DNA of 64,000 nt from Thermodesulfobacteriota bacterium (lineage in GTDB: Bacteria > Desulfobacterota_D > UBA1144 > Nemesobacterales > UBA2774): contig OZ244197.1 in NCBI GenBank assembly GCA_965216785.1, forward strand, positions 1,888,001 to 1,952,000. The letters run 5' to 3'. Each line of letters begins with the position of its first letter. Position 1 is the first letter of the stretch. The position numbers and the translations under genes are program-made. Below, piece by piece: positions 7,635 to 55,031 of this stretch. The notes beneath the pieces are model-generated. The model was given only the letters and a program-made list of their open reading frames with translations, made no database searches and had not been told where the DNA came from.

Positions 7635-7663
7635 TTGACTGAAATCGTAAACGTTTATATATT
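7635..7663 (+). promoter_or_regulatory. sigma70-like promoter for the collagen-like gene
   Basis: TTGACT-N17-TATATT in an AT-rich intergenic region. Confidence 0.5.
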
Positions 7664-7689
7664 TGAGTGAATTTAAACGGAGGATGGAG

Positions 7690-8763
7690 ATGATTAGATC
7701 AATTACTCGTGGAACTCTAGTTCTACTGCTGGCTATATCTGTAAACACATTTGCAGCTCAACCGGAAGTAACTGTAACAGAAGTATTCGTTGATTTTGAT
7801 ACCGAGACAATCACAATCATGGGTGATAACTTTGATCTTGGCCCTAATCCGCTCAATGTTACATTAGGTGCCTATGGCAGCCTAAATATAGTTTCTGCCG
7901 AACCAAATTTAATAATTGTCGACTTTCCAGCAGGCGGCCTGCTGGCTGGTGATTTTCTTTTAACGGTATCCAGCGGGCCAGGCCAAAGAAAAAATGACGA
8001 ACATGTCGTAACTGTTGGAGCAACCGGGCCTGAAGGACCGGAAGGCACGCCCGGAGAGCAAGGCCCCCAGGGTGCGCAAGGCCCACAAGGAGAGCCGGGT
8101 CCTGAAGGTCCTCAGGGAGAGCCTGGGCCAGAGGGCCCGCAAGGAGAGCCCGGACCACCAGGGCCTCAGGGTGATGCCGGACCCCCGGGACCGCAAGGTG
8201 ATCCTGGTATGAATGGTGTAGAAGGGCATCCGGGACAGCCTGGTCCACAAGGCGAACAAGGACCTCAGGGTGATACTGGACCACCAGGACCGCAGGGTGA
8301 TGCCGGACCTCCGGGACCACAAGGTGATCCGGGTCCCCAGGGTATTCAAGGACCCCCGGGACCACAAGGTGACACAGGACCCCAGGGGATTCAAGGGCTT
8401 CCCGGACCGCCAGGGCTGCAGGGCAATCCCGGACCCCCGGGCCCAAAGGGAGATCCAGGACTACAAGGAGAGACCGGACCAGAGGGCCCGCAAGGAATCC
8501 CCGGACCGTCGGGAACATGGAGTTTCTTTACAGGCAACTGTCCAACCGGTGGTAATGCATGTCAATTTACGGCATCCTGTGGAGCTGGCGAAACAGCGGT
8601 ATCCGGAGCTTGCGGGCTTTTAACCGGGAGTCAAAATAGCAGGGATATTATGTATACCGGTCCTAATCCGTTAGACACAACTCAATGGATTTGCAGATTT
8701 GACAGGGGTGGAGGTGCAGCTTTTACAGTAGACTACGGGGTATTTTGTGTTCCAAATTCTTAA
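7690..8763 (+). CDS. Secreted collagen-like protein (signal peptide, small beta domain, ~56 Gly-X-Y triplets, Cys-rich C-terminal domain)
   Basis: Uninterrupted GXY run; GGAGG RBS before ATG 7690; signal peptide [22 protein letters not shown]. Confidence 0.9.
8017..8520 (+). repeat. Collagen Gly-X-Y coding repeat (~56 triplets)
   Basis: Counted from the translation GAT-GPE...GPS-GTW. Confidence 0.9.
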
Positions 8764-8867
8764 CCATCGGCTCTGCTGGATAAAATATATACCAAAATAA
8801 TATGCAATATTGTAATCGTGTATGCTCATACGGTATATTTACGCAATAAATACGGAGCTCGGTGATA

Positions 8868-9125
8868 ATGAACGAAAAACCTACTATAGCTGAAGATATT
8901 GATATTAATGAGGTAGAGGACGGCTACGTTATTTACCAAAAGGAAAATGACAAGGTTCACTACCTGAACAAGACTGCCGTGCTTGTACTCGAATCCTGCA
9001 CCGGGAAAAACACTGCTGCTGATATAGAGGTGATTGTAAAGGAGGCGTATAAGCTTCCTGAAGCACCACAAAAGGAAGTCGCCGACTGCCTCGATACACT
9101 CTTTCAAGAAGGTCTGATTAAATAA
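8868..9125 (+). CDS. PqqD-family / RiPP recognition element (RRE) protein
   Basis: 85 aa; 'VHYLNKTAVLVLESCTG...IEVIVKEAY...EVADCLDTLFQEGLIK' fits the PqqD pattern (LN.t...w...dG...l...y...dv..fl..L...gli). Confidence 0.85.
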   Translation: MNEKPTIAEDIDINEVEDGYVIYQKENDKVHYLNKTAVLVLESCTGKNTAADIEVIVKEAYKLPEAPQKEVADCLDTLFQEGLIK

Positions 9126-9958
9126 ATTACGAACGTAAGTACACGCTGCTCGACACGGTAATCACAATACGTACTGAAAGCGAGGTACTGGCGCGCCGTC
9201 TTGATTTTATAGTACAAGAGGCGGAGCACACGCTTCACCCCCTAAAAGACGCTACATACGAATTCATACTCAGGGACGGCGCTTACGAGATAAGGAAGGA
9301 TGGAAGTCTTTGTTTCTCCTCTTCCGACCTCTCAGACGCAGTCTTTAATCTGCAGTGGCTTATTCATAAGGAAGTATTGAAGAACGTTACAGAGTCTATA
9401 CGTATTCATGCGGGATGCGGGGAGCTCGACGGAAGGAGGTTTCTCGTCGCGGGCGACAAGGGGGCGGGCAAGACGACGCTCATGGTACGTCTATTGTTCG
9501 AGGGATTCCGCGTCATCGGTGATGAGCTGGTACTGGTCAGGGACAGGAGAGCAATCCCATTTCCCAGAAGGTTTCACATCAAACAAGAAAGTATGAACCT
9601 GCTGCCCGAGCTTAACAGCCTGTTTGCTTCCCTGCCATACAATATGACAAGCTACGGCCATAAGATGTTTTCATTCACTCCTCAGGATGCCGGATATGAG
9701 TGGAAGATCGACGAGGGTGACATTCATTCTATTTTTTATCTGGAACCCAACCACGGAGGGCAGACGCGCATAGAGGAATGCCCGAAATATATGATGGTCA
9801 ATAGGGTTATGCCTATGAGTTTTCTGTCTGAGACCGAGGATCATATGAAGATAAACCAGCTCTGTAATATGATTGATCGAGCAAACTGTTATATTTTGCA
9901 TGTTGGAGACCTTGAAGGGGCGGTTTCCACTATACAGGAAAAAATGTCTGTGCTATAA
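9122..9958 (+). CDS. HPr-kinase-related P-loop kinase (start uncertain: frame is open from ATA 9122; ORF track uses TTG 9377)
   Basis: 'IHAGC...LVAGDKGAGKTTL...GF.VIGDELV' matches the HprK-type His / Walker A / acidic-pair signature. Confidence 0.8.
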   Translation: MNYERKYTLLDTVITIRTESEVLARRLDFIVQEAEHTLHPLKDATYEFILRDGAYEIRKDGSLCFSSSDLSDAVFNLQWLIHKEVLKNVTESIRIHAGCGELDGRRFLVAGDKGAGKTTLMVRLLFEGFRVIGDELVLVRDRRAIPFPRRFHIKQESMNLLPELNSLFASLPYNMTSYGHKMFSFTPQDAGYEWKIDEGDIHSIFYLEPNHGGQTRIEECPKYMMVNRVMPMSFLSETEDHMKINQLCNMIDRANCYILHVGDLEGAVSTIQEKMSVL

Positions 9959-9959
9959 T
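9951..9959 (+). promoter_or_regulatory. Extended -10 promoter (TGcTATAAT) upstream of the precursor-Hint genes
   Basis: Perfect TGnTATAAT about 45 nt before ATG 10004, which has an AAGGAGG RBS. Confidence 0.45.
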
Positions 9960-10003
9960 GCGTAATTAGTATTATTAGACCTGCTATAAAGGAGGAACGT
10001 TAC

Positions 10004-10591
10004 ATGAGCGAGAAAAAATTTATAGATGAAGTTAATCCCGAAAGGCGCGAGTTTTTAGAGAAAGTGACCAAGGGAGCTTTTATCATCCCTACTGTAATAT
10101 CGGTGATGATGCTGAATCAGAAGCTTAACCTAACGACGGCCAACGCACAGAGCAACCTACCACCGTGCCTGTCTTGTGAGACTTTAATCTCCACCCCGGA
10201 CGGGAACGTCACAATAGTTGATTTAAAACCTGGGATGAAGGTCTATACCCTCGATACTAAAGGAAACAAGGTTGTAGAAGAGCTTGAGCTCGTATCAAAA
10301 GTAACGGTCCCTGAGACTCATACGCTCTTCAGTCTATGTTTTGGCGGCGGTACAGAGCTATTAGTTTCCGGTGCTCATCCGACAGCGGACGGCAGATATA
10401 TATATGATCTCAAACCGGGCGATATGATCGACGGCGCTGAGCTCTTATCCATCGAAAAGGTTAGCTACACAGCCGGATATACATATGACCTGCTACCGGC
10501 GGGAGATACTGGATGTTACTGGGCTGACGGGGTTCTTTTAGGCAGCACGCTAGCCGCAGAGTCAGAGAGCAGAATACGGAAGGCCTCTTAA
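10004..10591 (+). CDS. Putative precursor peptide 1: 48-aa leader + QSNLPP + C-terminal Hint domain (Cys55 at 10166)
   Basis: Hint blocks 'CLSCETLISTPDG', 'DLKPG', 'VSGAHP' and 'TYDL...YWADGVL'; leader shared with three paralogues. Confidence 0.85.
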   Translation: MSEKKFIDEVNPERREFLEKVTKGAFIIPTVISVMMLNQKLNLTTANAQSNLPPCLSCETLISTPDGNVTIVDLKPGMKVYTLDTKGNKVVEELELVSKVTVPETHTLFSLCFGGGTELLVSGAHPTADGRYIYDLKPGDMIDGAELLSIEKVSYTAGYTYDLLPAGDTGCYWADGVLLGSTLAAESESRIRKAS

Positions 10592-10642
10592 CAAGGCTCT
10601 AAGAGCTATAAAAACAGCACTTAAAAGAAGGAGGGTTCTTAC

Positions 10643-11227
10643 ATGAGCGAAAAAAAATTTATAGATGAAGTTAACCCCGAGAGACGCGAATTTCTGGAAA
10701 AAGTAACTAAAGGCGCATTTATTATCCCAACTGTCGTTTCTGTAATGATGTTGAATCAAAAACTTAACCTTACGACAGCCAACGCGGCGAGCAACATGAT
10801 TTGTCTTTCTTGCGAGACTTTAATATCTACGCCCGAAGGTGAAATTCGGGTAGTTGATTTGAAACCGGGAATGCTTGTCTTTACCCTGGACATGAACGGA
10901 AACAAGGTCATAGAGCGGTTAGAGCTAGTATCGAAAGTAACGGTCCCTGAAACTCATGTACTCTGCCATCTGGTTTTTAGTGATGGGAGAGAGCTCTTTG
11001 TGTCGGGTGGGCATCCGACAGCGGACGGTAGAGATGTTAACGAGCTTGCGCCGGGTGACATGCTCGACGGAGCGGAGGTGGTCTCTGTAGTGAATATTCG
11101 CTACATAGCCGGTCATACCTATGACTTGCTCCCTGCCGGAGAGACGGGAAATTACTGGGCAAACGGTGTTCTGTTGGGCAGCACGCTCGCACCTGAGTCC
11201 GTGAGCAGAATACGGAAGGCCTCTTAA
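10643..11227 (+). CDS. Putative precursor peptide 2: 48-aa leader + ASNMI + C-terminal Hint domain (Cys54 at 10802)
   Basis: Tandem paralogue of 10004-10591; 'CLSCETLISTPEG', 'VSGGHP' and 'TYDL...YWANGVL'. Confidence 0.85.
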   Translation: MSEKKFIDEVNPERREFLEKVTKGAFIIPTVVSVMMLNQKLNLTTANAASNMICLSCETLISTPEGEIRVVDLKPGMLVFTLDMNGNKVIERLELVSKVTVPETHVLCHLVFSDGRELFVSGGHPTADGRDVNELAPGDMLDGAEVVSVVNIRYIAGHTYDLLPAGETGNYWANGVLLGSTLAPESVSRIRKAS

Positions 11228-11337
11228 CTGTAAGGCAAGTTAAGCTAAGGTTTCAGCCTGTTACATTAAGTGCATAATTCATCTTTATGCTATGTAGAGC
11301 TTTCATCCTGTATTAAAATTTTTCCAATGGGTAAAAA

Positions 11338-12444
11338 TTGAGCGATATCCTGTTTTCCGCCTCTATGATCGTCCGAAACGAGGAAAAATTCCTTGAGGGA
11401 TGCCTTGAGTCCATTAGAAACGTCGTGGACGAAATAGTAATAGTCGATACAGGCTCAGTAGACGGCACAAAGGAGATTGCCTTAGAGTACGGTGCGAGGG
11501 TATTTGATTTCCCGTGGAACGGAGATTTCGCGGCAGCGCGTAACGAAGCCCTTCGTCACTGCAGGGGCGAATGGATACTGTATATAGACGCTGACGAACG
11601 GGTGAGGCCCGCCGAAAAGTCCTACGTCACTGAAATTCTCTCGGACGTATCTAAAGTCGCATATACACTTTTGTTTTACCCGATAGTGGGCTATACGGGA
11701 TACCGTGAGCACCGCATCTTCCGAAGCGATCCCCGCATACGTTTTCAGGGGGTTATACACGAAGGTATGCTTTCCGCGATCCAGGACGTTGCGCGCGAGG
11801 ACGGGCTCGAAATCGGTTATTGCGATCTTGTAATAGACCACCTGGGATACGAGGGTGACCTTACGCATAAGCACGAAAGGAACCTGCCCCTACTGAGAGA
11901 TCAGATTGAAAACGACCCAGAAAGAATTTACCTCAGATGGCAGCTCGGCGCGGCGCTTAAGGGACTTGGGGACTTGGATGGTGCGGAGAGGGCGTGGATG
12001 GACGCGATCGACATTATACGCGGAAAGGAAACGGTAGGCCCGGAAGACAGCCATCCGTACTACGACATGATCCGCCTCCTGAATGAGAGTGAGCGTGACT
12101 ACACAGAGCTTCTGGCCGAGTCTTCAAAGCTGTTTCCGGACAACTATTTAATAACCTGGACCAAGGCCATGACGCTGATGCACGATCAAAGATTTGAGGA
12201 TGCTGCGCGGGTGTTTGAATCTCTCGCCGCGATAGATCCGGCAAGCCTTGACGGGGAGATACTTGCCTATAACGCGCGCATATTCGATGAGCTTTCCTAT
12301 GAACCCCTCGCCACGTGTTATTTTAAGCTCGGCAAGCTAGAAGAGAGCGAGAAATATTACGCGCTCGCGCTCAGGTGTGATCCTGAAAATCAGCAATACC
12401 GTACGAAGCTCAAGTTCGTTTCAGCGTTGGTAAATAAATCGTGA
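11338..12444 (+). CDS. GT2 glycosyltransferase with C-terminal TPRs
   Basis: 'SMIVRNEE', 'VDTGSVDGT', 'DFAAARN', 'IDADE' and 'HLGY', plus helical TPR repeats. Confidence 0.88.
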   Translation: MSDILFSASMIVRNEEKFLEGCLESIRNVVDEIVIVDTGSVDGTKEIALEYGARVFDFPWNGDFAAARNEALRHCRGEWILYIDADERVRPAEKSYVTEILSDVSKVAYTLLFYPIVGYTGYREHRIFRSDPRIRFQGVIHEGMLSAIQDVAREDGLEIGYCDLVIDHLGYEGDLTHKHERNLPLLRDQIENDPERIYLRWQLGAALKGLGDLDGAERAWMDAIDIIRGKETVGPEDSHPYYDMIRLLNESERDYTELLAESSKLFPDNYLITWTKAMTLMHDQRFEDAARVFESLAAIDPASLDGEILAYNARIFDELSYEPLATCYFKLGKLEESEKYYALALRCDPENQQYRTKLKFVSALVNKS

Positions 12445-13182
12445 TTGATTATGAAAGATGAACCGCTTGTATCATGCCTTTGCGTTACAAGAGACAGAGT
12501 GCCTATGCTCAAAAGAGCGATAAGGTCGTTCAGGGACCAGGATTACGGGCACAAGGAGCTGGTGATCGTGTATGAGAGCGACGACGGTGAAACAGAGGAA
12601 TTTTTAAGAGAAGTTTCAGACGGTAACATTCTCAAAATAAAAGTTCCGGCAGAGCCCAGACTCACGCTCGGAGAGCTCAGGAACCTGGCTCTTAAAGAGA
12701 GTACGGGAGAGTATTTTTGCCAGTGGGACGACGACGATTTCTATCATAATCAGAGGGTTTCATTCCAGATGGAAGTACTGCGCGAGTCTGCTATGCCCGC
12801 CTGCGTAATGGTCCACTGGCTCATATACGATTTGGCGCATGCTCAGGCCTACGTGTCTAATATGAGGCCTTGGGAAGGCAGTCTGCTCTGTAAAAAATCA
12901 CTCATAGATGAAGAGCTTAAGTACGAGGATAAAGGCAGGGGGGAGGACACGGCTTTAATAAGTGAGCTGTTTACGAGAAACCTCGCATTTCCCGTAATTA
13001 TGCCAAAGCTATATATATACGTATACCATGGGGGTAATGTGTGGACAGATGAGCATTGGGGCAGAATATTCAGCGCGAGCACGAAGCTCTCTGAGGAGTC
13101 GAGCAGGGTGATAAGGGACATATTGGACGGGAAATACACAGGTGATGAAGCCTCCGGGCTGCTGGATGATATAACTGAATGA
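12445..13182 (+). CDS. GT2 (GT-A) glycosyltransferase
   Basis: 'PLVSCLCVT', 'LGELRN', 'QWDDDD' and 'GEDT'. Confidence 0.82.
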   Translation: MIMKDEPLVSCLCVTRDRVPMLKRAIRSFRDQDYGHKELVIVYESDDGETEEFLREVSDGNILKIKVPAEPRLTLGELRNLALKESTGEYFCQWDDDDFYHNQRVSFQMEVLRESAMPACVMVHWLIYDLAHAQAYVSNMRPWEGSLLCKKSLIDEELKYEDKGRGEDTALISELFTRNLAFPVIMPKLYIYVYHGGNVWTDEHWGRIFSASTKLSEESSRVIRDILDGKYTGDEASGLLDDITE

Positions 13183-13209
13183 AATCACCCGCATAACGAA
13201 CTAAGAATT

Positions 13210-14958
13210 ATGGCGATACCCAAAATATTGTATCAGACCTATAAGACCAAAGAGATCCCGGAGCGGCTCGAAGAGTATCGCCGTAAGCTGCTAGAGCTTC
13301 ACCCCGGCTGGGAATACCGGTTTTACGGAGACGACGAGTGCAGGGATTTAGTGAAGAGGTTTTTACCCTCGTTTCTCCCGGTATATGATAGCTGCTCGAT
13401 ACCGGCTCAGAAAGCCGATATATTCCGCATCATAGCGGTCTGGGCGCTAGGCGGGTTTTACCTGGATATCGACGTCGAATGTATACGGAGCGTCGATCAG
13501 CTCTGTGAATTCCACTTAGTATTTGCCGAGGAGCTCACACTTACTCAAGAGCAGGCGAAGGAACTGGGTCACAGGGACCGCCTAAGGGTGGGGAACTTTA
13601 TGTTCGGCAGTGAGCAGGGCCATCCTTTTCTTCTGCGTATTCTAAGGAAAATGGCGGAGGAAAGCAGGCGTGAGATTCGCTCTGAGAACGATGTGCTGGA
13701 ATCCACAGGGCCGGGCCTTGTCACTACCGTATACCATGATGCGTGTGAGGAGCTAAGGGACATCGTACTGCTGCGGAACATCGACCGTGAATGCCCTGTC
13801 ACTGGCGGTGTAGCCTGCCACTTCGGAAATTATGCCATACACCACCATGAAGGCTCCTGGAGGTGGGGGCATGTTAAATCTCCCAAGCTGAAAAACTTTG
13901 CCCGAAGTCAAAAGATCACACCGACTGAGATAAACAAAATCTGCAGCGAGATCGATTCTGAATTAGAAAGGACAAGTAGACCCGAGGATATTTATATATT
14001 AAGAGCATACAAGGAGAAACCATACGATGGCTTAACCTACGTGTTTGACCGAACTTCGGGGCTCGGCATCATTTCTGACAATACGAGCAGTCTTGAAGAT
14101 AAAAAAGTCCTCGTGAGCGGGATGCCCATTATGTTTACCGACAAAGTGTCTAAGCAAAATACCAATGTTATATACACGACATTTGAAAGTACGTCGCTTC
14201 CCCCAGATTGGGTGAGTGCGATAAACGGCTTATTTAACTACTGTATAGTTCCGCACCAGCACGTAAAGAAAGTGTTTGAGGATTCGGGGGTGAGCATACC
14301 AGTCAGCGTCATACACCAGGGATTTACTAGGTATAGGAGGAAAGATAGGAAAGCTCTTGACGATAAGACATACAAGATCGGATTTCTCGGGGTCCCTGTA
14401 GAGAGGAAGAATCTATTCAAGCTATATCAGGCTTGCGCACATCTTCTGGCGGATATACCTGAACTGAGGCTTAGTGTTCATATCCCGGATTATTACGGTG
14501 GGATGAATGTGGAATATCTGGGGATGGTCAAAATGTCACCCTTCGTAGATTGGACCGAAGGTCATCTGGGCGAGAATGAGATCGCAGAGTGGTACAGCGG
14601 GCTTTCGTGTTATGTATTTCCGTCGAGCGGGGAAGGGTGGTCCTTTACTCCGCGGGAAAGTCTTTATCTCGGAGTACCGACTATTTTGTCGGATATCCCT
14701 GTTCACAGGGAGCTTATTGAATCCGGTTACTGCAAAGCGATACCCGTAAGTGGTAGGGAAGAGGCGGTATTTAACTCAAAGGTGTCCGGACAATGGGACA
14801 GGGTTGCGGTTGAGGACATAGAAAACACGATACGAGACCTGTATCTGAATTACGGGAGTTATTATATTAAGGCTATTCAGGGAAGCCGCTGGATAGAGAA
14901 TAAATGGACCAATGAAAGCACTCAGCAGTTACTGCTCGATTATTTGACAAAGGTGTAA
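13210..14958 (+). CDS. Bifunctional glycosyltransferase: N-terminal GT32/OCH1-like DxD domain + C-terminal GT4-like (GT-B) domain
   Basis: 'IPKILYQT', 'KADIFR', 'GGFYLDIDV' and 'STGPG'; then 'YVFPSSGEGWSFTPRESLYLGVPTILSDIPVHRE'. Confidence 0.82.
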   Translation: MAIPKILYQTYKTKEIPERLEEYRRKLLELHPGWEYRFYGDDECRDLVKRFLPSFLPVYDSCSIPAQKADIFRIIAVWALGGFYLDIDVECIRSVDQLCEFHLVFAEELTLTQEQAKELGHRDRLRVGNFMFGSEQGHPFLLRILRKMAEESRREIRSENDVLESTGPGLVTTVYHDACEELRDIVLLRNIDRECPVTGGVACHFGNYAIHHHEGSWRWGHVKSPKLKNFARSQKITPTEINKICSEIDSELERTSRPEDIYILRAYKEKPYDGLTYVFDRTSGLGIISDNTSSLEDKKVLVSGMPIMFTDKVSKQNTNVIYTTFESTSLPPDWVSAINGLFNYCIVPHQHVKKVFEDSGVSIPVSVIHQGFTRYRRKDRKALDDKTYKIGFLGVPVERKNLFKLYQACAHLLADIPELRLSVHIPDYYGGMNVEYLGMVKMSPFVDWTEGHLGENEIAEWYSGLSCYVFPSSGEGWSFTPRESLYLGVPTILSDIPVHRELIESGYCKAIPVSGREEAVFNSKVSGQWDRVAVEDIENTIRDLYLNYGSYYIKAIQGSRWIENKWTNESTQQLLLDYLTKV

Positions 14959-15077
14959 GAATTTTAGATTATTGACTAATATTGATAACCGTCTTGTTTT
15001 ATCTGAAGCAATGTGTTAACTTAGAATCACTCTTTAAATGTTTACGCATTTGAAAATTGATAAAGGAGACTGGGAAT

Positions 15078-15248
15078 ATGAGCGACAAGAAATTTCCGGA
15101 GGACGTGAACTCCGAAAGACGCGAGTTTATAGAGAAAGTGACCAAGGGCGCTTTTATTATCCCCACTGTAATATCGGTGATGATGTTGAATCAGAAGCTG
15201 CACCTTACGACAGCAAACGCGAATAGTAACATCCCACCGCCACCTTAA
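15078..15248 (+). CDS. Putative precursor peptide 3 (56 aa): shared leader + NSNIPPPP, no Hint domain
   Basis: AAGGAG RBS before ATG 15078; MSDKKFPEDVNSERREFIEKVTKGAFIIPTVISVMMLNQKLHLTTANANSNIPPPP. Confidence 0.85.
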   Translation: MSDKKFPEDVNSERREFIEKVTKGAFIIPTVISVMMLNQKLHLTTANANSNIPPPP

Positions 15249-15322
15249 ATTGTGGTTTCGGTGATCTGAGCAGCTGGGTTCTGATATAACTTTTGAATAG
15301 TTTTAAAGGAGAACGGATATAA

Positions 15323-15502
15323 ATGAGTGACAAGAAATTTCCGGAGGACGTGAACTCCGAAAGGCGCGAGTTTTTAGAGAAAGTGACCAAGGGCGCTTTT
15401 ATCATCCCCACGGTAATATCAGTAATGATGCTGAATCAGAAGCTAAATCTGACGACAGCCAACGCACAGAGTAATATGACTATCATTAATGAACAGCCGT
15501 AA
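15323..15502 (+). CDS. Putative precursor peptide 4 (59 aa, absent from the ORF track): shared leader + QSNMTIINEQP, no Hint domain
   Basis: Manual translation MSDKKFPEDVNSERREFLEKVTKGAFIIPTVISVMMLNQKLNLTTANAQSNMTIINEQP*; AAGGAG RBS. Confidence 0.85.
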   Translation: MSDKKFPEDVNSERREFLEKVTKGAFIIPTVISVMMLNQKLNLTTANAQSNMTIINEQP

Positions 15503-15821
15503 GCTTTAGCATGGAGCAGTATAAATTTATGGCTGTCGTTGATATCTATTAAAAAGTAAGTCCGGCTAGAACGGGGTTGGCGAATGGAGCTCGCCCTTCG
15601 TTTCCGGTAAATGTTTTATATCATTTCAATTTTAAGCTTATTTTGCTGAATTTTGCCAGAATAAGCTTATTCCATCCAAGCTCAAATTAATCTCAACTTA
15701 TCAGATACAATAGAGGTTTTAATAATAAGCCGTAATGAGAATTCTTCGGTCCCTTATATAAATCCTCATTATGTTTATAGTATTATGCTGAGGGTTGGCG
15801 CTCAGAGCGGGATAAAGGAAA

Positions 15822-17099
15822 ATGGTTCAGTACAAAAATCCGGAATGTAAACGCGGCGGTTATAACGGAGGATATCTACCCGACCGCACGCAGGAGCTTT
15901 TGCTCAGGGCATGTCTTCTTAAGGGAGACGAGGCCATTGATGCGTATCGTGAATGGAAGAGCTTAGTCGATCTTGATAACGTCGATCCCGGCTCATACCG
16001 TCTTTTCCCTCTCCTTTACATAAACTTGAAATCACAGGGCTTGGAAGAGCCGATGATGAATATCTTTAAGTGGGTCTACACAAAAACCCGTGAGAATAAC
16101 GAAATACTGCTGCGTAATCTCGGCCCCCTGCTGAAAGAATTCAACAACTGCGGGATCGAGGTCATATTGCTTAAAGGCGCCGGGCTGATTCTCACTTGCT
16201 TCCGGGATTATGGACTTCGCCCCATGGTGGATGCGGACCTTCTCGTTCCTACCGCGAAAACCGGGGACGCGATCGAGCTCATAACAGGACTTGGATGGGA
16301 TTCGTCCATAACACCGCTTAAGGGTTTTAAGGACATGAAGCTGCTGTCCCGGCTCGGATGGACCCCGGGGGACAGAAAGCTCGAGGACTTCACTGAAGAG
16401 TATTTTTGCGTGAGGCACGGGCAGGACTTTACAAACCCTGAGAAGTTCACGATAGACCTTCACTGGCACATGCTCCACGGGTATAACGAGCCTGACGCCG
16501 ACGCGGATTTCTGGCAAGGTGCTGGTACTGTAAACGTGGAAGGCGCGCAAGCGAGGGTACTCGATCCGGCTGATCTGCTTCTTCACGTCTGTTCACACGG
16601 AGTAAGATGGGACCCTCTTCCCGCTATTCGCTGGGTGGCGGATGCGGCATGGATAGTCGACGGCTCAGAAGGTGGTATTGATTGGGAGAGGTTTGTAGAT
16701 GTAACCGCTCGCCACGGTAAGGTGCTTTATGCAAGGGAAGCTATACGCTATTTGAACCGTTATTTGGTACACAAAGTTCCGCAGTCCGTACTAGATCGGC
16801 TAAACACCCTGCCGGTCACGAAAGCTCAATATTTGGAGTATCATATTAGGACGCGTCCGCCTGGAATACTCGACGGTTTTTATGAGCTGGGGTTTCTTTA
16901 CGATAATTATTCGAAGGTCAGTCAGGGTCAAAACCTTTATCGCAGACTCACCGGATACCCCCGGTTCCTTCAGCATGTGTTCGGTATGGAAAAGCTGCGG
17001 CATTTGGTATTGTACGCCGCGTTCGAGTTCGTACGCCGGGGCGCGCATCTGCCGGGCTTGGTGGTCAGGGGACTAAAGAACAAGCTCGTAAAGGGGTGA
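15822..17099 (+). CDS. Nucleotidyltransferase family protein (NTP_transf_5-like)
   Basis: 'LLKGA...RPMVDADLLV...IDLHW...LLLHVCSH...WVAD' motif order. Confidence 0.82.
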   Translation: MVQYKNPECKRGGYNGGYLPDRTQELLLRACLLKGDEAIDAYREWKSLVDLDNVDPGSYRLFPLLYINLKSQGLEEPMMNIFKWVYTKTRENNEILLRNLGPLLKEFNNCGIEVILLKGAGLILTCFRDYGLRPMVDADLLVPTAKTGDAIELITGLGWDSSITPLKGFKDMKLLSRLGWTPGDRKLEDFTEEYFCVRHGQDFTNPEKFTIDLHWHMLHGYNEPDADADFWQGAGTVNVEGAQARVLDPADLLLHVCSHGVRWDPLPAIRWVADAAWIVDGSEGGIDWERFVDVTARHGKVLYAREAIRYLNRYLVHKVPQSVLDRLNTLPVTKAQYLEYHIRTRPPGILDGFYELGFLYDNYSKVSQGQNLYRRLTGYPRFLQHVFGMEKLRHLVLYAAFEFVRRGAHLPGLVVRGLKNKLVKG

Positions 17100-17151: not shown

Positions 17152-18159
17152 TTATCTTGTCAGGCGCCAGTAAAGCCTTCTAAACTTTCTTAGTATCTTA
17201 CTTTCGATTACCGTCAATGTTACACCTTTTAAAGTTCTAAGCGGGGATCCCTTAATAACGTCTTTCTCTAGATCACTGATTTTATAACGCTTCTGCTCAC
17301 CTGCAGCAGGGCTTGTATTTTCGAGTATGGTTTTCATTCTTTCTTGGAAGAGTTTGTCATCTGCATCCGTACCGCTCGTGTCCGATACCAATATGTGACC
17401 CCTGGGGGTTCTTAGGTACTTTCTCGCGCCCCCTCCGGGGGCGCAAAGGTGCCAGGCATTGGCCTCTGTAGTGACCATGAGTGTGTAATTTTTTTCAACG
17501 AGCCTCGCGCATAAATCGCTCTCTTCCCGGTGCGCCTGGTCCGAGTACCCGTCAACGGCCCATCCCCCTGCTTCCTCTACCGCTTTGCGGCGGTAGCATA
17601 TCGCCCCACCGAGGAGACTATCGACTTCTATGACTTCCGGATCATTATAATAGTGGTGGCCCTGCAGTTTCCAGGTCAGCTCATCAAGAGTAGATGTGAA
17701 TGACCTTTCCGCCAGATTCAAATCCAAGCTCGCCTTTTTCGCTTGAGGTACTGGAAAGCACCCGCCCACTGCAGCAAGCGGCCTGTCGGCGAAAAAATGA
17801 AACGGCTTTAGTATGTTTTCAATGAAACTTGCGTCCGGAAGCATATCGTCATCTATCCTCAGTATGAACTCGATCGATTGCGGCACGGCCTCCATTGCCT
17901 GCTGGTGTCTCTTCCAGCCATCTTTAGTACGAATGATTATGATCTCGTGACCTATGTTTCTGGCAACCGTAAGAAGGTCGGTAATCGCATCGTCTCTCTC
18001 GACAGGTGAATCGCTCTGGTCGTTGATTACAATCATAAAATTCGTAAAAGTTTGATTGAGCAGAGAGTTCAGCAGCACTGCAAGGTAGGAAGGACGGTTC
18101 TTCGTTGGTATGGCTACAGCTATTTTTTCGTCCTTTTTGATTTGCCTTAGTCTATCCAT
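17152..18159 (-). CDS. GT2 glycosyltransferase
   Basis: 'IPTKNRP', 'RIDDD', 'AGGW' and 'EESDLCAR'. Confidence 0.8.
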   Translation of the reverse strand: MDRLRQIKKDEKIAVAIPTKNRPSYLAVLLNSLLNQTFTNFMIVINDQSDSPVERDDAITDLLTVARNIGHEIIIIRTKDGWKRHQQAMEAVPQSIEFILRIDDDMLPDASFIENILKPFHFFADRPLAAVGGCFPVPQAKKASLDLNLAERSFTSTLDELTWKLQGHHYYNDPEVIEVDSLLGGAICYRRKAVEEAGGWAVDGYSDQAHREESDLCARLVEKNYTLMVTTEANAWHLCAPGGGARKYLRTPRGHILVSDTSGTDADDKLFQERMKTILENTSPAAGEQKRYKISDLEKDVIKGSPLRTLKGVTLTVIESKILRKFRRLYWRLTR

Positions 18160-51007: not shown

Positions 51008-51904
51008 TTAAGCTACGGACTGTCTTCTTCTGATAGCAAGTAGCCCGATAATTCCCAGCACCCCTGCCATTGCTATAAGTCCCCACTGGCTGAGCGTCGG
51101 GATGGGGCGGGGCTGAATCTGCCCGAACACTAAACCGTCCGCGCAATCGGGCAGGGCGCCTAATTCCGTAAAATCGCCCGTTTCGGTATCTACAATTATC
51201 AGAGTGCTCTCGGACCTTGACTTAAAAATCCCATAAAGCTCGCCCGTTACCGGGTGGAAATCGAGTGCGCCGATAGTGCCCCGTCTGAGTACACCCCCAA
51301 CCTCGGTGCCCTGGCCCGTGTCCGGGTTAATGGTGATTAGAGTCGTGGCGTTGTATGAGAAAAGTGTGCCGTCATCCCTCCGCGCGAGGCCGTGACCGCC
51401 AAAGTCAAACCCGGTCGGGCCGATTACAGTTCCCTGTCCTGTGGAGGTGTTTATGCTTTGAAAGGCGGTGTCGATATCTTCATCGCACCTTCTGGCTGTG
51501 GCGTAGAGCATATTCGTATTCGGGTCAAGGGTCATGCCAGGCGCCCTTCCGCAGGTCATGCTGCCGCTGCCGTCGTTTCCGATCTCACCGATCAGGCTAC
51601 CCTGGCCCGTGAACGGGTTTATATCTATCAGAACGGCGATGTCTTCTTCGTCATCGTCATTCGCGCTGCCGACCAGCCGTCCGTCCGGCAAGATTTCAAG
51701 TGCGGTTAGGCCGTCAAACCCGGTCTCCCCAATAAATTCGGCCTCTGCTGTTGCGGGGTTGATTCTGTAGAGTGAGCTGAATTGATTTACATCGCCGCAG
51801 AACTCTGACGCCGCGCCGAGCAGGAATACTTCCTGGGCTTGCGAAAGCCCCGAAGCGGTTAATGCCAAGAAAAATGATAATACGGTTAATTTCAGTAGTT
51901 TCAT
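51008..51904 (-). CDS. IPTL-CTERM surface protein with beta-repeat domain
   Basis: Signal peptide; C-terminal 'RPIPTLSQWGLIAMAGVLGIIGLLAIRRR'; GGAGG RBS before ATG 51904. Confidence 0.87.
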   Translation of the reverse strand: MKLLKLTVLSFFLALTASGLSQAQEVFLLGAASEFCGDVNQFSSLYRINPATAEAEFIGETGFDGLTALEILPDGRLVGSANDDDEEDIAVLIDINPFTGQGSLIGEIGNDGSGSMTCGRAPGMTLDPNTNMLYATARRCDEDIDTAFQSINTSTGQGTVIGPTGFDFGGHGLARRDDGTLFSYNATTLITINPDTGQGTEVGGVLRRGTIGALDFHPVTGELYGIFKSRSESTLIIVDTETGDFTELGALPDCADGLVFGQIQPRPIPTLSQWGLIAMAGVLGIIGLLAIRRRQSVA

Positions 51905-52108: not shown

Positions 52109-52909
52109 ATGATTTCAATAAATAATATTAAACGATCAAGTTTCATTTTATTTGTGTTATTGTTAGCGACATTTATTGCAGGGCCTACCCAGCAAGTGTC
52201 TGCAACCGACTTTCCGGGGCCGGATGCTTTTGGGTATGTAGGGACTACTGTCCCATTCAATCTGCGTGATGTTAGTGCTACGGGTACAAATGTGCCGCTT
52301 AGTGATGATGAAGTGAGCGGTGCAATACAAATACCGTTTCTATTTAACTTTTATGGGATTGTCTATACTCAGCTATTTATTTCATCCAATGGTTTTATAA
52401 AATTCACGGGCGGCGGCAGCAGCGGATGCTGCTCTGGGGAACCGATACCAACAGCAGGCGGTGATGCCGATAATCTTATCGCCGGCTGGTGGAACGACTT
52501 GTACCCACCAGGAAGCGGGGAAGTCCGCTACCAGACATTGGGCGCTGAAGGAAGCAGGGAGTTTGTAGTTGGTTTTTATAACATGCAGTATTGCTGCGGC
52601 GGTAGTACCAATGTCACATTCGAGATGATACTTCACGAGGAGACCCAGGATATTGAGCTTCAGTACGCGTCCGCGCCCGGGCGACCCGGCGGCAGCAATA
52701 CGAGCGTGGGTATCGAAAACAATAACGGCAGAGTCGGCTTGCAGGTTGCTTTTGGAGAATTCGATTTTAATGATCAGGGATTCCTGCTCTCTCCGGAAGG
52801 AAGAGTCAGGCCTATCCCGACGCTTTCCGAGTGGGGCCTTTTGGCCATGGCGGGAGTTTTGGGAATCGTAGGGCTCTTAGCAGTCCGCAGAAGAAAAGCC
52901 ACGGCGTAA
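52109..52909 (+). CDS. IPTL-CTERM surface protein
   Basis: 'RPIPTLSEWGLLAMAGVLGIVGLLAVRRRK'; 'IPFLFNFYG...ISSNG' nidogen-like segment. Confidence 0.87.
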   Translation: MISINNIKRSSFILFVLLLATFIAGPTQQVSATDFPGPDAFGYVGTTVPFNLRDVSATGTNVPLSDDEVSGAIQIPFLFNFYGIVYTQLFISSNGFIKFTGGGSSGCCSGEPIPTAGGDADNLIAGWWNDLYPPGSGEVRYQTLGAEGSREFVVGFYNMQYCCGGSTNVTFEMILHEETQDIELQYASAPGRPGGSNTSVGIENNNGRVGLQVAFGEFDFNDQGFLLSPEGRVRPIPTLSEWGLLAMAGVLGIVGLLAVRRRKATA

Positions 52910-53115: not shown

Positions 53116-53925
53116 ATGAAAAAAGTTAGTTATATCTTATTTTTACCGCTTGTTTTATGCTCATTTCTTCTCATGGGTTTTGTTCTACCGCCTGACGAGG
53201 ATAATCTTGTCGTGAACGGCAGCTTTGAGACCGGCGACTTCACCGGATGGATCCGGGATGATATTAGCGGGGCCGGCATCTGGGACGTTTACACAGGCAC
53301 GCCGCCGCCTTTATTCTTCCCTCCGCCAGTCGGCGATTTCGCAGCTACCACTTTTCAGATGAGTCCCGACTCGAATATCCTTTATCAGGACATTCAGCTG
53401 CCCGAGAATTCAGAAATAACGTGCTCGGCGATCGTGTACTACGTAAACGAGGCTTTAATCGGTGGTGGTGGTGTGGAGTCCGAAACCTTCACTAAAGGTC
53501 TTGTTGCCGCAGATCCCGGTGATGTGACAGCCGAGCGCATATTCATCATAGGCGACGGGCTGACTTTAAATCAACCAAATCAGCAGTACAGGGTGGACAT
53601 TATGGACCCGGACGCGCCTCCCTTCGATACTGGCGCGGGAGTGCTGATGAACCTTTTCCAGACACTGCCAGGAGATCCGGACATACGTGATTATACGACC
53701 CTTAATTTCGACCTCACCCCTTACGCAGGACAGACGGTGAGGATAAGGGCGGCTGTTGCCGTAACGGAAAACCCGCTGTTTGGCGCGATAGACGCTGTAA
53801 CGTGTGCTTGGGTACCTACAGCAAGACCGATCCCAACCTTGTCTCAGTGGGGGCTGATCGCTATGGCAGGGTTGATTGGAATCATAGGGCTTCTTGCTGT
53901 CAGGAGAAAGAGGCTGACCGCTTAA
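53116..53925 (+). CDS. IPTL-CTERM surface protein
   Basis: 'NGSFETGDFTGW' and 'RPIPTLSQWGLIAMAGLIG'; AGGAGG RBS before ATG 53116. Confidence 0.87.
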   Translation: MKKVSYILFLPLVLCSFLLMGFVLPPDEDNLVVNGSFETGDFTGWIRDDISGAGIWDVYTGTPPPLFFPPPVGDFAATTFQMSPDSNILYQDIQLPENSEITCSAIVYYVNEALIGGGGVESETFTKGLVAADPGDVTAERIFIIGDGLTLNQPNQQYRVDIMDPDAPPFDTGAGVLMNLFQTLPGDPDIRDYTTLNFDLTPYAGQTVRIRAAVAVTENPLFGAIDAVTCAWVPTARPIPTLSQWGLIAMAGLIGIIGLLAVRRKRLTA

Positions 53926-54074: not shown

Positions 54075-55031
54075 ATGAGGAACTTACTTGTATTAACTAT
54101 ATTCGCGGTATCTTTAGGCTTTTTCTTTACCCCTGCGTCACAAGCAGGAATTGCTCTACCGCCGCTCTGGCAGGACAACTTCGGCGATGAGCTTGAAGAC
54201 GTTTCAGACTGTGACGACTGCGAGGAGATGATTACGCTACCCATCCCGTTCCCGTTTAACGGCAACACCTACAATACGGCGTATGTGGGTTCGAACGGCT
54301 GTATACAGTTTGACGGCCTGGGCCTGGACGATGAAATAGACTATGACCACTGGAATTATATGGAAGAATTTTTGGCCGACTCAGACCCCGACAACCCCGA
54401 GATTTGTCCTTTCAATACCGACCTTGACACTGAAGAGGGCGGCACGGTTTATTATAACAACTCAAGTAACCCATTAATAATAACCTGGGACGGAGTTGCC
54501 GCTCATAACGATACCGATATTATTAATACATTCCAGATACTTTTATACCTAGACGGAAGTATAGTGCTCAGCTTCAACGGTATCGGAGTAGGTGAAGATT
54601 TATTAGATCTCGATGGAGGCATAGTAGTCGGCGTTACACCAAGCGACTTCCCGTTTGACGGCGAGCTTTTCGTTCCGGGCGACCCGGGCCCCAATGATCT
54701 AAATTCAGGTACAGCGGCTTACAACCGGGCCACAATCTACGAGCGCTGGTGCTATGATGAGGCCAACTCGTGCGGAGTCGAGGGAAGTGACACCGGACTT
54801 CCCGGGCCTATTAACACAGCGTTTGACCTGGACTTTCAGAGCGTTTGCTTTGCTCCTATAGGAGCGGGATTTCAAGTATCGAGCGCCGGAGAGGAAAACC
54901 CGGCCTTTGTTTGCGCGGCGATGTTGGTAAGGCCGATACCGACGCTTTCAGAGTGGGGACTGATCGCTATGGCCGGAGTATTGGGCATAGTTGGGTTGTT
55001 GGTTCTCAGAAGAAGAAATGTGACGGCTTAA
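54075..55031 (+). CDS. IPTL-CTERM surface protein (acidic, nidogen-like segment)
   Basis: 'LPIPFPFNG...YVGSNG' and 'RPIPTLSEWGLIAMAGVLG'. Confidence 0.87.
   Translation: MRNLLVLTIFAVSLGFFFTPASQAGIALPPLWQDNFGDELEDVSDCDDCEEMITLPIPFPFNGNTYNTAYVGSNGCIQFDGLGLDDEIDYDHWNYMEEFLADSDPDNPEICPFNTDLDTEEGGTVYYNNSSNPLIITWDGVAAHNDTDIINTFQILLYLDGSIVLSFNGIGVGEDLLDLDGGIVVGVTPSDFPFDGELFVPGDPGPNDLNSGTAAYNRATIYERWCYDEANSCGVEGSDTGLPGPINTAFDLDFQSVCFAPIGAGFQVSSAGEENPAFVCAAMLVRPIPTLSEWGLIAMAGVLGIVGLLVLRRRNVTA

Follow-up and report, generated by a model that had tools for sequence, protein, structure and literature searches.

RRE-associated short peptides with a twin-arginine-like leader and a swappable C-terminus in a glycosyltransferase cluster of Thermodesulfobacteriota

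Related systems and composition of the cluster

The paeninodin and pseudomycoidin clusters are among the described systems closest to the locus presented here. As described in PMC6993621, these lasso-peptide tailoring sets comprise a stand-alone RRE (B1), an HprK-related kinase, an uncharacterised NTP transferase and a short precursor with a near-invariant Ser, all of which have counterparts here. In pseudomycoidin, the HprK-family kinase and the uncharacterised NTP transferase generate a hexose-capped phosphoserine on a RiPP, products of this type carrying a Ser-phosphate with one or two hexoses (PMC6993621). The likeness to PadeK/PsmK and PsmN is one of description. A comparable adjacency of PqqD, HprK-related kinase and nucleotidyltransferase is found in the HPr-rel-A system (TIGR04352 kinase, TIGR04353 PqqD chaperone).

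GmaR of Listeria is a flagellin O-GlcNAc transferase. Both GmaR and the glycocin enzyme SunS, which represents the peptide S/O-glycosyltransferases of GT2 type, join a GT2 domain to TPR and glycosylate polypeptides. The GT2-TPR protein of the present cluster shares this design and would likewise act on a polypeptide; its nearest solved structures are GmaR (E 6e-30) and SunS (E 2e-16). In another described system, IPTL-CTERM/exosortase (TIGR04174), the IPTL-CTERM signal has an anchoring role.

The type B BIL (Hint_2, PF13403) and the Hint of Hedgehog have a common fold with Cys1, S-x-x-H and a block-F Asp, as set out in PMC7765530. The Hint domain is C-terminal to an exported N-product, as is predicted here, and has, as here, no C-terminal His-Asn. 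A type B BIL cuts at its own N-terminus and cannot splice (PMC7765530). A different secreted bacterial Hint subgroup is mentioned in PMC2362128.

The locus is part of a 64,000-nucleotide stretch of DNA (contig OZ244197.1, positions 1,888,001 to 1,952,000), which is termed the window; coordinates count from its first letter. The cluster runs in the order pqqD/RRE, kinase, two Hint fusions, GT2-TPR, GT2, DXD plus GT4 fusion, two short peptides and NTP_transf_5:

8868..9125, + strand: stand-alone PqqD/RRE peptide-binding protein, 85 aa (PF05402 30.3 bits, cut-off 23.4; 79 homologs)
9122..9958, + strand: HprK-related P-loop kinase, about 278 aa (TIGR04352 E 3.5e-19, 69 bits, under the cut-off of 200)
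10004..10591, + strand: long precursor 1, 195 aa, leader followed by QSNLPP and Hint; Cys1 codon 10166-10168
10643..11227, + strand: long precursor 2, 194 aa, leader followed by ASNMI and Hint; Cys1 codon 10802-10804
11338..12444, + strand: GT2-TPR glycosyltransferase (GmaR/SunS-like), the gene in tightest linkage to the peptide
12445..13182, + strand: GT2 glycosyltransferase
13210..14958, + strand: fusion of a DXD-motif (PF04488) and a GT4-type (PF00534) glycosyltransferase
15062..15068, + strand: ribosome-binding site AAAGGAG of short precursor 1, 9 nt 5' of the ATG
15078..15248, + strand: short precursor 1, 56 aa, ATG start, ending NSNIPPPP then TAA
15305..15311, + strand: ribosome-binding site AAAGGAG of short precursor 2, 11 nt 5' of the ATG
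15323..15502, + strand: short precursor 2, 59 aa, ATG start, ending QSNMTIINEQP then TAA
15822..17099, + strand: NTP_transf_5 nucleotidyltransferase (PF14907 119.5 bits), annotated like PsmN, with a DxD motif

The kinase frame opens at an ATA codon (9122-9124), which shares bases with the pqqD stop (ATAA). This ATA is kept in 15/15 related loci and homology runs from it, which makes a conserved non-canonical start likely. The public gene call for the kinase begins at 9377 and, at 193 aa, is missing 85 residues. A programmed frameshift joining PqqD and kinase was considered and rejected, a conserved slippery site being absent by eye.

The DNA from 8700 to 16000 shows zero letter differences from contigs of two public runs, possibly of the source sample. 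Just 5' of pqqD (7663-8763) is a signal-bearing protein with IPT/TIG and collagen repeats, unseen in the loci of relatives; in genus g5, some short peptides carry collagen-like Gly-Pro-x tails (L025 10730, L026 10475, L037 6830). An additional GT2 is encoded on the opposite strand past the nucleotidyltransferase (17152-18159, -), and its homolog flanks the other end of the cluster in genome G018.

The cluster differs from each of the related systems. In paeninodin and pseudomycoidin the modified Ser is C-terminal, whereas here the near-invariant Ser is internal, just past A-x-A. The present cluster also encodes three dedicated glycosyltransferases and several precursor copies, with a leader of twin-arginine type and, optionally, Hint tails. 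Lasso cyclase C and B2 protease are absent from the 18 proteins of 270-20555 and none is conserved in 21 loci. Unlike paeninodin and pseudomycoidin, the cluster has no ABC exporter. A core of sufficient length for a macrolactam, with a C-terminal Ser as kinase target, is likewise lacking: the tails are of 4-18 residues with Ser at position 2, and Ser is last in 1/119. In contrast to glycocins, there is no double-glycine leader, cysteine-rich core (Cys in 2/119 short tails) or peptidase-ABC transporter, and an RRE is present with a 4-18 residue core containing S-N-x-(S/T); TIGR04195 gives 69 bits against 350. The HPr-rel-A models also score low (TIGR04352 69 against 200, TIGR04353 24.5 against 35), with no precursor model match. 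The terminal His-Asn of inteins and type A BILs is absent, as is a sterol-recognition region after Hint of the Hedgehog Hog kind. In type B BILs and Hedgehog the N-product is not, as here, a RiPP-like micro-peptide that is also encoded by free genes. The cargo differs from that of the IPTL-CTERM system in being a micro-peptide, not a protein, and the window copies are without a sorting signal. The system would work like the tailoring arm of a phosphoglycosylated lasso peptide joined to a glycocin-type transferase, yet by the features compared it falls outside the lasso, glycocin, HPr-rel-A, intein and Hog groups.

Short precursor genes and Hint fusions

The initial annotation described tandem ORFs of 56 and 59 aa, each preceded by a ribosome-binding site and resembling the N-terminal part of the long copies. 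Both are present and intact, and the site reads AAAGGAG. It is likewise found 9 nt before the ATG of the long copies. An in-frame TTG of short precursor 1, at 15057, is upstream of its ribosome-binding site. Short precursor 1 consists of RREFI, FxxPxV, a hydrophobic stretch and ANA, followed by an 8-residue tail with zero N-x-S/T sequons. The leader of short precursor 2 is the same in design and precedes an 11-residue tail containing the sequon S-N-M-T. The first 52 residues of both align gap-free to the N-termini of 10004-10591 and 10643-11227, and the resemblance is borne out by identities to long copy 1, over the aligned part, of 80% (short precursor 1) and 89% (short precursor 2).

A tblastn search of the whole genome found these four copies only (E 1e-23 to 1e-34; next match E 0.03). 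Between the two short genes, 138/156 coding bases match, against 9/30 bases 5' of the ATGs. Over 41 leader codons there are 12 synonymous and 4 nonsynonymous changes (pS 0.44, pN 0.042). Both classes are under purifying selection across relatives, with a pN/pS of 0.12 for the short copies (54 compared) and 0.07 for the long ones (23 compared). The short ORFs are almost certainly real genes. One of them was said to have been missed by the ORF track, which is true at most of that reader's own track: the exact sequences of both are present in public gene calls, with no name shown. In the ESM Atlas, a short peptide retrieves unnamed clusters on top (0.97, 0.95), the nearest named ones being below 0.9 and of inconsistent family.

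Promoter-like sites, the one at 14944-14972 included, are about as frequent as chance would give (3 against 2.7 expected). A weak terminator-like hairpin is present 3' of short precursor 2 (15579-15595). Terminator-like sites number 5 in the 1 kb scanned against 0.8 expected, two of them within the peptide genes on the minus strand.

It is extremely improbable that the short ORFs are truncated duplicates of Hint genes in decay. Such decay is seen, exceptionally, in relatives. G022 and G030 have in common a copy whose Cys1 codon reads TGA, with a broken Hint downstream, and another G022 copy is split just past Cys1 by an IS-like stretch; the peptide part stays intact in these copies. A C-L ending is also present in 2/119 short homologs. 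In the window, no Hint remnant was detected 3' of either short ORF (best blastn E 1.1, best HMM E 0.5), as had been reported by eye, and the absence of remnants together with the selection signal refutes decay for both copies. Both also have orthologs with near-identical tails in G002, Hint-free clusters exist, and the distant family described below is Hint-free. The decayed fusions (L028 8196 and 6846, G022:C7; L055 2795, G030:C410) are outside the cluster. Selenocysteine at the TGA was rejected as an explanation, since the frame breaks again after about 55-100 codons, a full Hint is absent, and the stops of short copies are mixed (TAA 34, TAG 14, TGA 14 in 62 rows, fragments included).

The homologs belong, by source name, to Thermodesulfobacteriota or Candidatus Dadabacteria. 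The leader was detected in 19/33 genomes of a Candidatus Dadabacteria-type family, with 1-9 matches per genome. Among 120 genomes of the phylum, it was found outside this family in one (G062), two more matches being marginal (E 0.001-0.008). GT2-TPR is present in exactly the same 19/33 family genomes. NTP_transf_5 also occurs in 19/33, of which 18 are common with the peptide, and both exceptions are at contig ends. Gene order is kept across the fetched loci, and a scan of contigs with the nucleotidyltransferase returned only two loci, both known already. Short-type copies are found in all 19 leader-bearing family genomes (interrupted in G017) and in G062, where a single short peptide is placed between kinase and GT2-TPR, the slot of the Hint copies in the window.

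Intact Hint fusions accompany short copies in 13/19 genomes. G002 has a Hint half at a contig end and G022 has remnants only. No Hint match was obtained in G006, G016, G018 and G021 (92-98% complete), so that the short peptide is the constant unit. Intact Hint-fused precursors also stand alone, away from the cluster (L031, L032, L033, L039, L040; G004, G013, G032). In genus g3, a second GT2-TPR is found among the short peptides (L021, L022, L023, L024, L038, L056, L058), which suggests that peptide and GT2-TPR were duplicated together. Locus L036 (G017:C21) has frameshifts in pqqD, the glycosyltransferase fusion, the nucleotidyltransferase and every short copy, which reflect decay of the cluster or else faulty assembly. 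Little of the leader tree is resolved, with 12 long/short changes on the best tree and only 1 forced by strong branches; the leader DNA is too short for a tree to order gains and losses.

For the comparison of the two forms, 120 listed of 205 short and 120 listed of 124 long homologs were analysed. A cut Hint fusion (P0043) was removed from the short set before counting. P0147 and P0217, which have no Hint match and a frameshifted look, were removed from the long set, P0217 being kept in the long sequon count. The remaining 118 of the 120 long homologs listed are Hint fusions, and Cys1 is found in 118/118. The block-B S-x-x-H Ser is present in 113/118 and the block-F Asp in 110/118. The C-terminal end of Hint reads G-S-T in 110/118, A-S-T in 2 and G-S-S in 1, with 5 unmatched and no His-Asn.

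The predicted structure of the long precursor contains a confident Hint domain (block pLDDT 86-96), and the model matches inteins, BILs and Hedgehog (E 1e-8 to 1e-6). On the window long copies PF13403 scores 26.1 and 28.3 bits against a gathering score of 28.4, matching over its first 38 positions only; a precomputed PF13403 mark is carried by many homologs. The Hint domain has zero matches in the plasmid and phage collections. As judged from these motifs, the Hint fits a type B BIL, which would cut N-terminally without splicing, and cleavage at Cys1 is predicted with high probability.

Downstream of the invariant A-N-A, both forms continue with x-S-N and a tail rich in Pro, Asp, Val and Thr, in which Lys and Arg are nearly absent. 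The composition of 119 short tails correlates with that of 118 pre-Cys1 segments at r 0.98, against r 0.08 with the first 8 Hint residues; kinship among the sequences means that this correlation, like the counts, overstates independence. A few identical tails are found in both forms (SNMTVP, SNDN, SNDG). These tails, the high correlation and the universal Cys1 support the initial proposal that a stop codon and Hint cleavage are alternative ways to set the C-terminus. Comparative genomics gives good support to the idea that the functional unit is the short peptide: short copies are present in 19/19 genomes, and no Hint match was obtained in G006, G016, G018 and G021 or in the 47 distant loci. 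The further claim, that the short ORFs independently confirm the cleavage site, was overstated. Tail lengths are 4-18 (median 9) in the short form and 4-13 (median 7) in the long, and the window pairs are unequal (8 and 11 residues in the short copies, 6 and 5 in the long). As lengths vary and the window pairs differ, the stop marks no particular residue; it is the Hint fold that fixes Cys1. The short genes show that the piece before Cys1 suffices as a gene product by itself, and leave the position of the cut unlocated.

The two products need not be equivalent, should Hint ligate instead of hydrolyse. A Hedgehog-like ligase is rather unlikely; in it, a lipid, amine or protein nucleophile would resolve the thioester at Cys1, and the long form would be C-terminally anchored, as a built-in replacement for IPTL-CTERM/exosortase, with the short form a free glycopeptide. 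Such a ligase would account for the retention of long beside short copies in 13/19 genomes, where a stop would suffice if cleavage alone mattered. Hint identity across relatives is 50-72%, on par with the kinase and GT2-TPR, the block-F Asp is conserved, and distant homologs hold an exosortase sorting signal in the same C-terminal slot. However, the last Hint strand is followed by no more than a short variable tail, which bears no resemblance to a sterol-recognition region, four genomes are without a Hint match and two have decayed copies, and the genome already has an exosortase and 54 IPTL-CTERM matches.

Leader, sequon and distant relatives

The leader reads E/D-R-R-E-F-L-E-K, then an uncharged stretch with F-x-x-P-x-V, a Lys-containing polar stretch and an A-N-A end. 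RR is invariant in 26 short and 70 long aligned sequences. The Tat consensus is given as SRRxFLK in PMC3712460, and the leader motif looks close to it. TatC is present in the genome, and an RRxFL-type motif, uncharged stretch and A-x-A site are all found in the leader. By a TatFind-type rule, used in place of the program itself, 22/3411 genome ORFs were flagged, both long copies among them. The curated Tat models TIGR01409 and PF10518 gave no match on the window peptides, and the best Tat model score of a distant member is 16.4 against a cut-off of 16.7.

Lasso RREs bind a YxxPxL motif. The F/Y-x-x-P-x-V of the leader resembles it and may be its counterpart. From its motifs, a single leader looks like a twin-arginine export signal and an RRE-type motif in one. 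Like RRE-dependent RiPP precursors, the peptides have a conserved leader and a variable core under purifying selection, and their linkage with modifying enzymes and an RRE is conserved.

A profile search of 1.8 billion representatives gave 18 matches, of which about nine are divergent peptides of the same design; two repetitive long proteins were set aside. The alignment of the divergent peptides led to 47 metagenome loci. Before counting, 2 cut peptides and 4 duplicates were removed from this distant set. GT2-TPR is directly downstream of the peptide in 34/36 loci with room (L108 missed the rule by one base), and pqqD is upstream in 30/33. In 12 loci the peptide directly adjoins pqqD, the kinase between them being absent. 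Varied additional glycosyltransferases are present, and no Hint was found in the 47 loci.

The C-terminal slot is instead occupied by a stop, a His/Asp-rich tail, a DUF11 domain or an IPTL-CTERM signal, the IPTL-CTERM cut-off being reached by 7/17 longer distant peptides scanned and DUF11 occurring in one. Long Lys/His/Asp-rich C-terminal tails, possibly metal-binding, are seen in L075, L081, L084 and L085. The IPTL-type peptides with upstream sequence (L088, L090, L096, L099, L101, L106) have pqqD directly in front and are kinase-free in 6/6 cases. The genome to which the window belongs (G000) has 54 IPTL-CTERM matches and one exosortase match, and four IPTL-CTERM genes are in the window (51023-51103, 52814-52894, 53830-53910, 54936-55016). 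PEP-CTERM signals, to which IPTL-CTERM is related, act after transit of the membrane, according to PMC1569441. By this analogy, the best evidence that the leader may direct export is the IPTL-CTERM on distant homologs. Not part of the initial annotation were the likeness of the leader to an export signal, the close linkage with GT2-TPR and this third type of C-terminus.

An ordinary RiPP, with a merely Tat-like leader removed by an unlinked protease and a core exported by another transporter, is very unlikely. The missing curated Tat match would fit such a pathway, as would the only NCBIfam match of the window peptides (TIGR04117, a radical-SAM target peptide family; weak, E 0.09-0.14) and the K-R that replaces R-R in many distant members. 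Against this, the loci compared share no protease or peptide exporter in the cluster, the upstream RND pump is of CusA/CzcA type, and IPTL-CTERM or DUF11 cargo behind the leader would require membrane transit, given what PMC1569441 describes for the related PEP-CTERM.

Conservation of the leader is far above that of ordinary signal peptides, for which reason it may itself be the product or stay uncleaved. An uncleaved, signal-anchored scaffold or primer in the inner membrane for a surface glycan is quite unlikely. The extreme conservation extends over the whole 51 residues, c-region included, and as few as four residues can make up the 'mature' part. A single moderately hydrophobic stretch (Kyte-Doolittle 1.8 over 15 residues) and three to four glycosyltransferases in the cluster, with varied extras in distant loci, also suit a scaffold. 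However, the c-region invariably ends in A-x-A in the close family, a motif that many distant members also have, and such an anchor would be redundant in IPTL-CTERM members, which are already C-terminally anchored.

Past the predicted cut, 32/42 distinct peptides of the distant set carry N-x-S/T, where 2000 shuffles gave 11.2 +/- 2.6 (maximum 21). Within the close family, 54/113 short and 32/114 long tails have S/T at N+2, compared with 4-5% elsewhere; relatedness of the sequences inflates these sequon counts. Ser or Thr precedes the Asn position in 237/237 tails. Of the four window copies, short precursor 2 alone carries a sequon downstream of A-N-A. At the sequon position, Asn is lacking in two distant peptides (L107). 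A periplasmic OST as the reader of the sequon is not favoured, STT3 having no match in the 92%-complete genome.

Proposed maturation and significance

In the preferred reading, to which a probability of about 0.55 is given, the stop-ended precursor would be bound by the RRE, glycosylated past the predicted signal cut and exported by Tat, with Hint as an optional extra domain that is predicted to cleave itself from the peptide at Cys1. The RRE would bind the F/Y-x-x-P-x-V stretch of the leader. GT2-TPR would then add the first sugar to the S-N-x-(S/T) core, on Ser, Thr or Asn, for extension by the other glycosyltransferases. The kinase and NTP_transf_5 may add a phospho-sugar as in pseudomycoidin, a step that would be optional because the kinase is absent between pqqD and peptide in 12 distant loci. 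Tat export of the bulky product and signal peptidase cleavage after A-N-A would leave a glycopeptide of 4-18 residues. In the long copies, hydrolysis after an N-to-S acyl shift at Cys1 would release the same kind of peptide. A stop, Hint autocleavage or (in other lineages) exosortase would define the C-terminus. The most likely role would be the display of a surface or secreted glycan.

The new elements are the Tat-like leader with an RRE-type motif, the Hint-free distant relatives, the swappable C-terminus and the enriched N-x-S/T. No description of the peptide family or of a Hint-fused RiPP precursor was found in openly readable full-text papers. In the main text of the RRE surveys PMC7470986 and PMC12710340 the terms 'kinase', 'nucleotidyltransferase', 'intein' and 'Hint' are absent; their supplements could list such clusters. 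The literature that pairs a Hint domain with RiPP is unrelated, going by title and abstract.

A more specific and rather doubtful version would have GT2-TPR N-glycosylate N-x-S/T in the cytoplasm, with a dual RRE/Tat leader and a C-terminus that is free, anchored to lipid by exosortase or ligated by Hint to a membrane nucleophile. If true, the peptides would be a widespread undescribed class of RiPP-like surface glycopeptides, Hint would be a bacterial counterpart of Hedgehog autoprocessing, and GT2-TPR would be an N-glycosyltransferase of the GT2 family.

Cassettes of PqqD, HprK-like kinase, NTP_transf_5 and GT2-TPR in uncultured bacteria gain from this locus a defined substrate and a modification site that can be tested. 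RiPP recognition, Tat export and C-terminal autoprocessing or sorting, usually separate fields, come together in it. Type B BIL domains have few assigned biological jobs; as one 55-residue peptide occurs naturally with Hint, without it and with a sorting signal, what Hint does can be tested with four or five small genes in E. coli. If real, leader-directed glycosylation in the cytoplasm coupled to Tat export would be a useful engineering tool.
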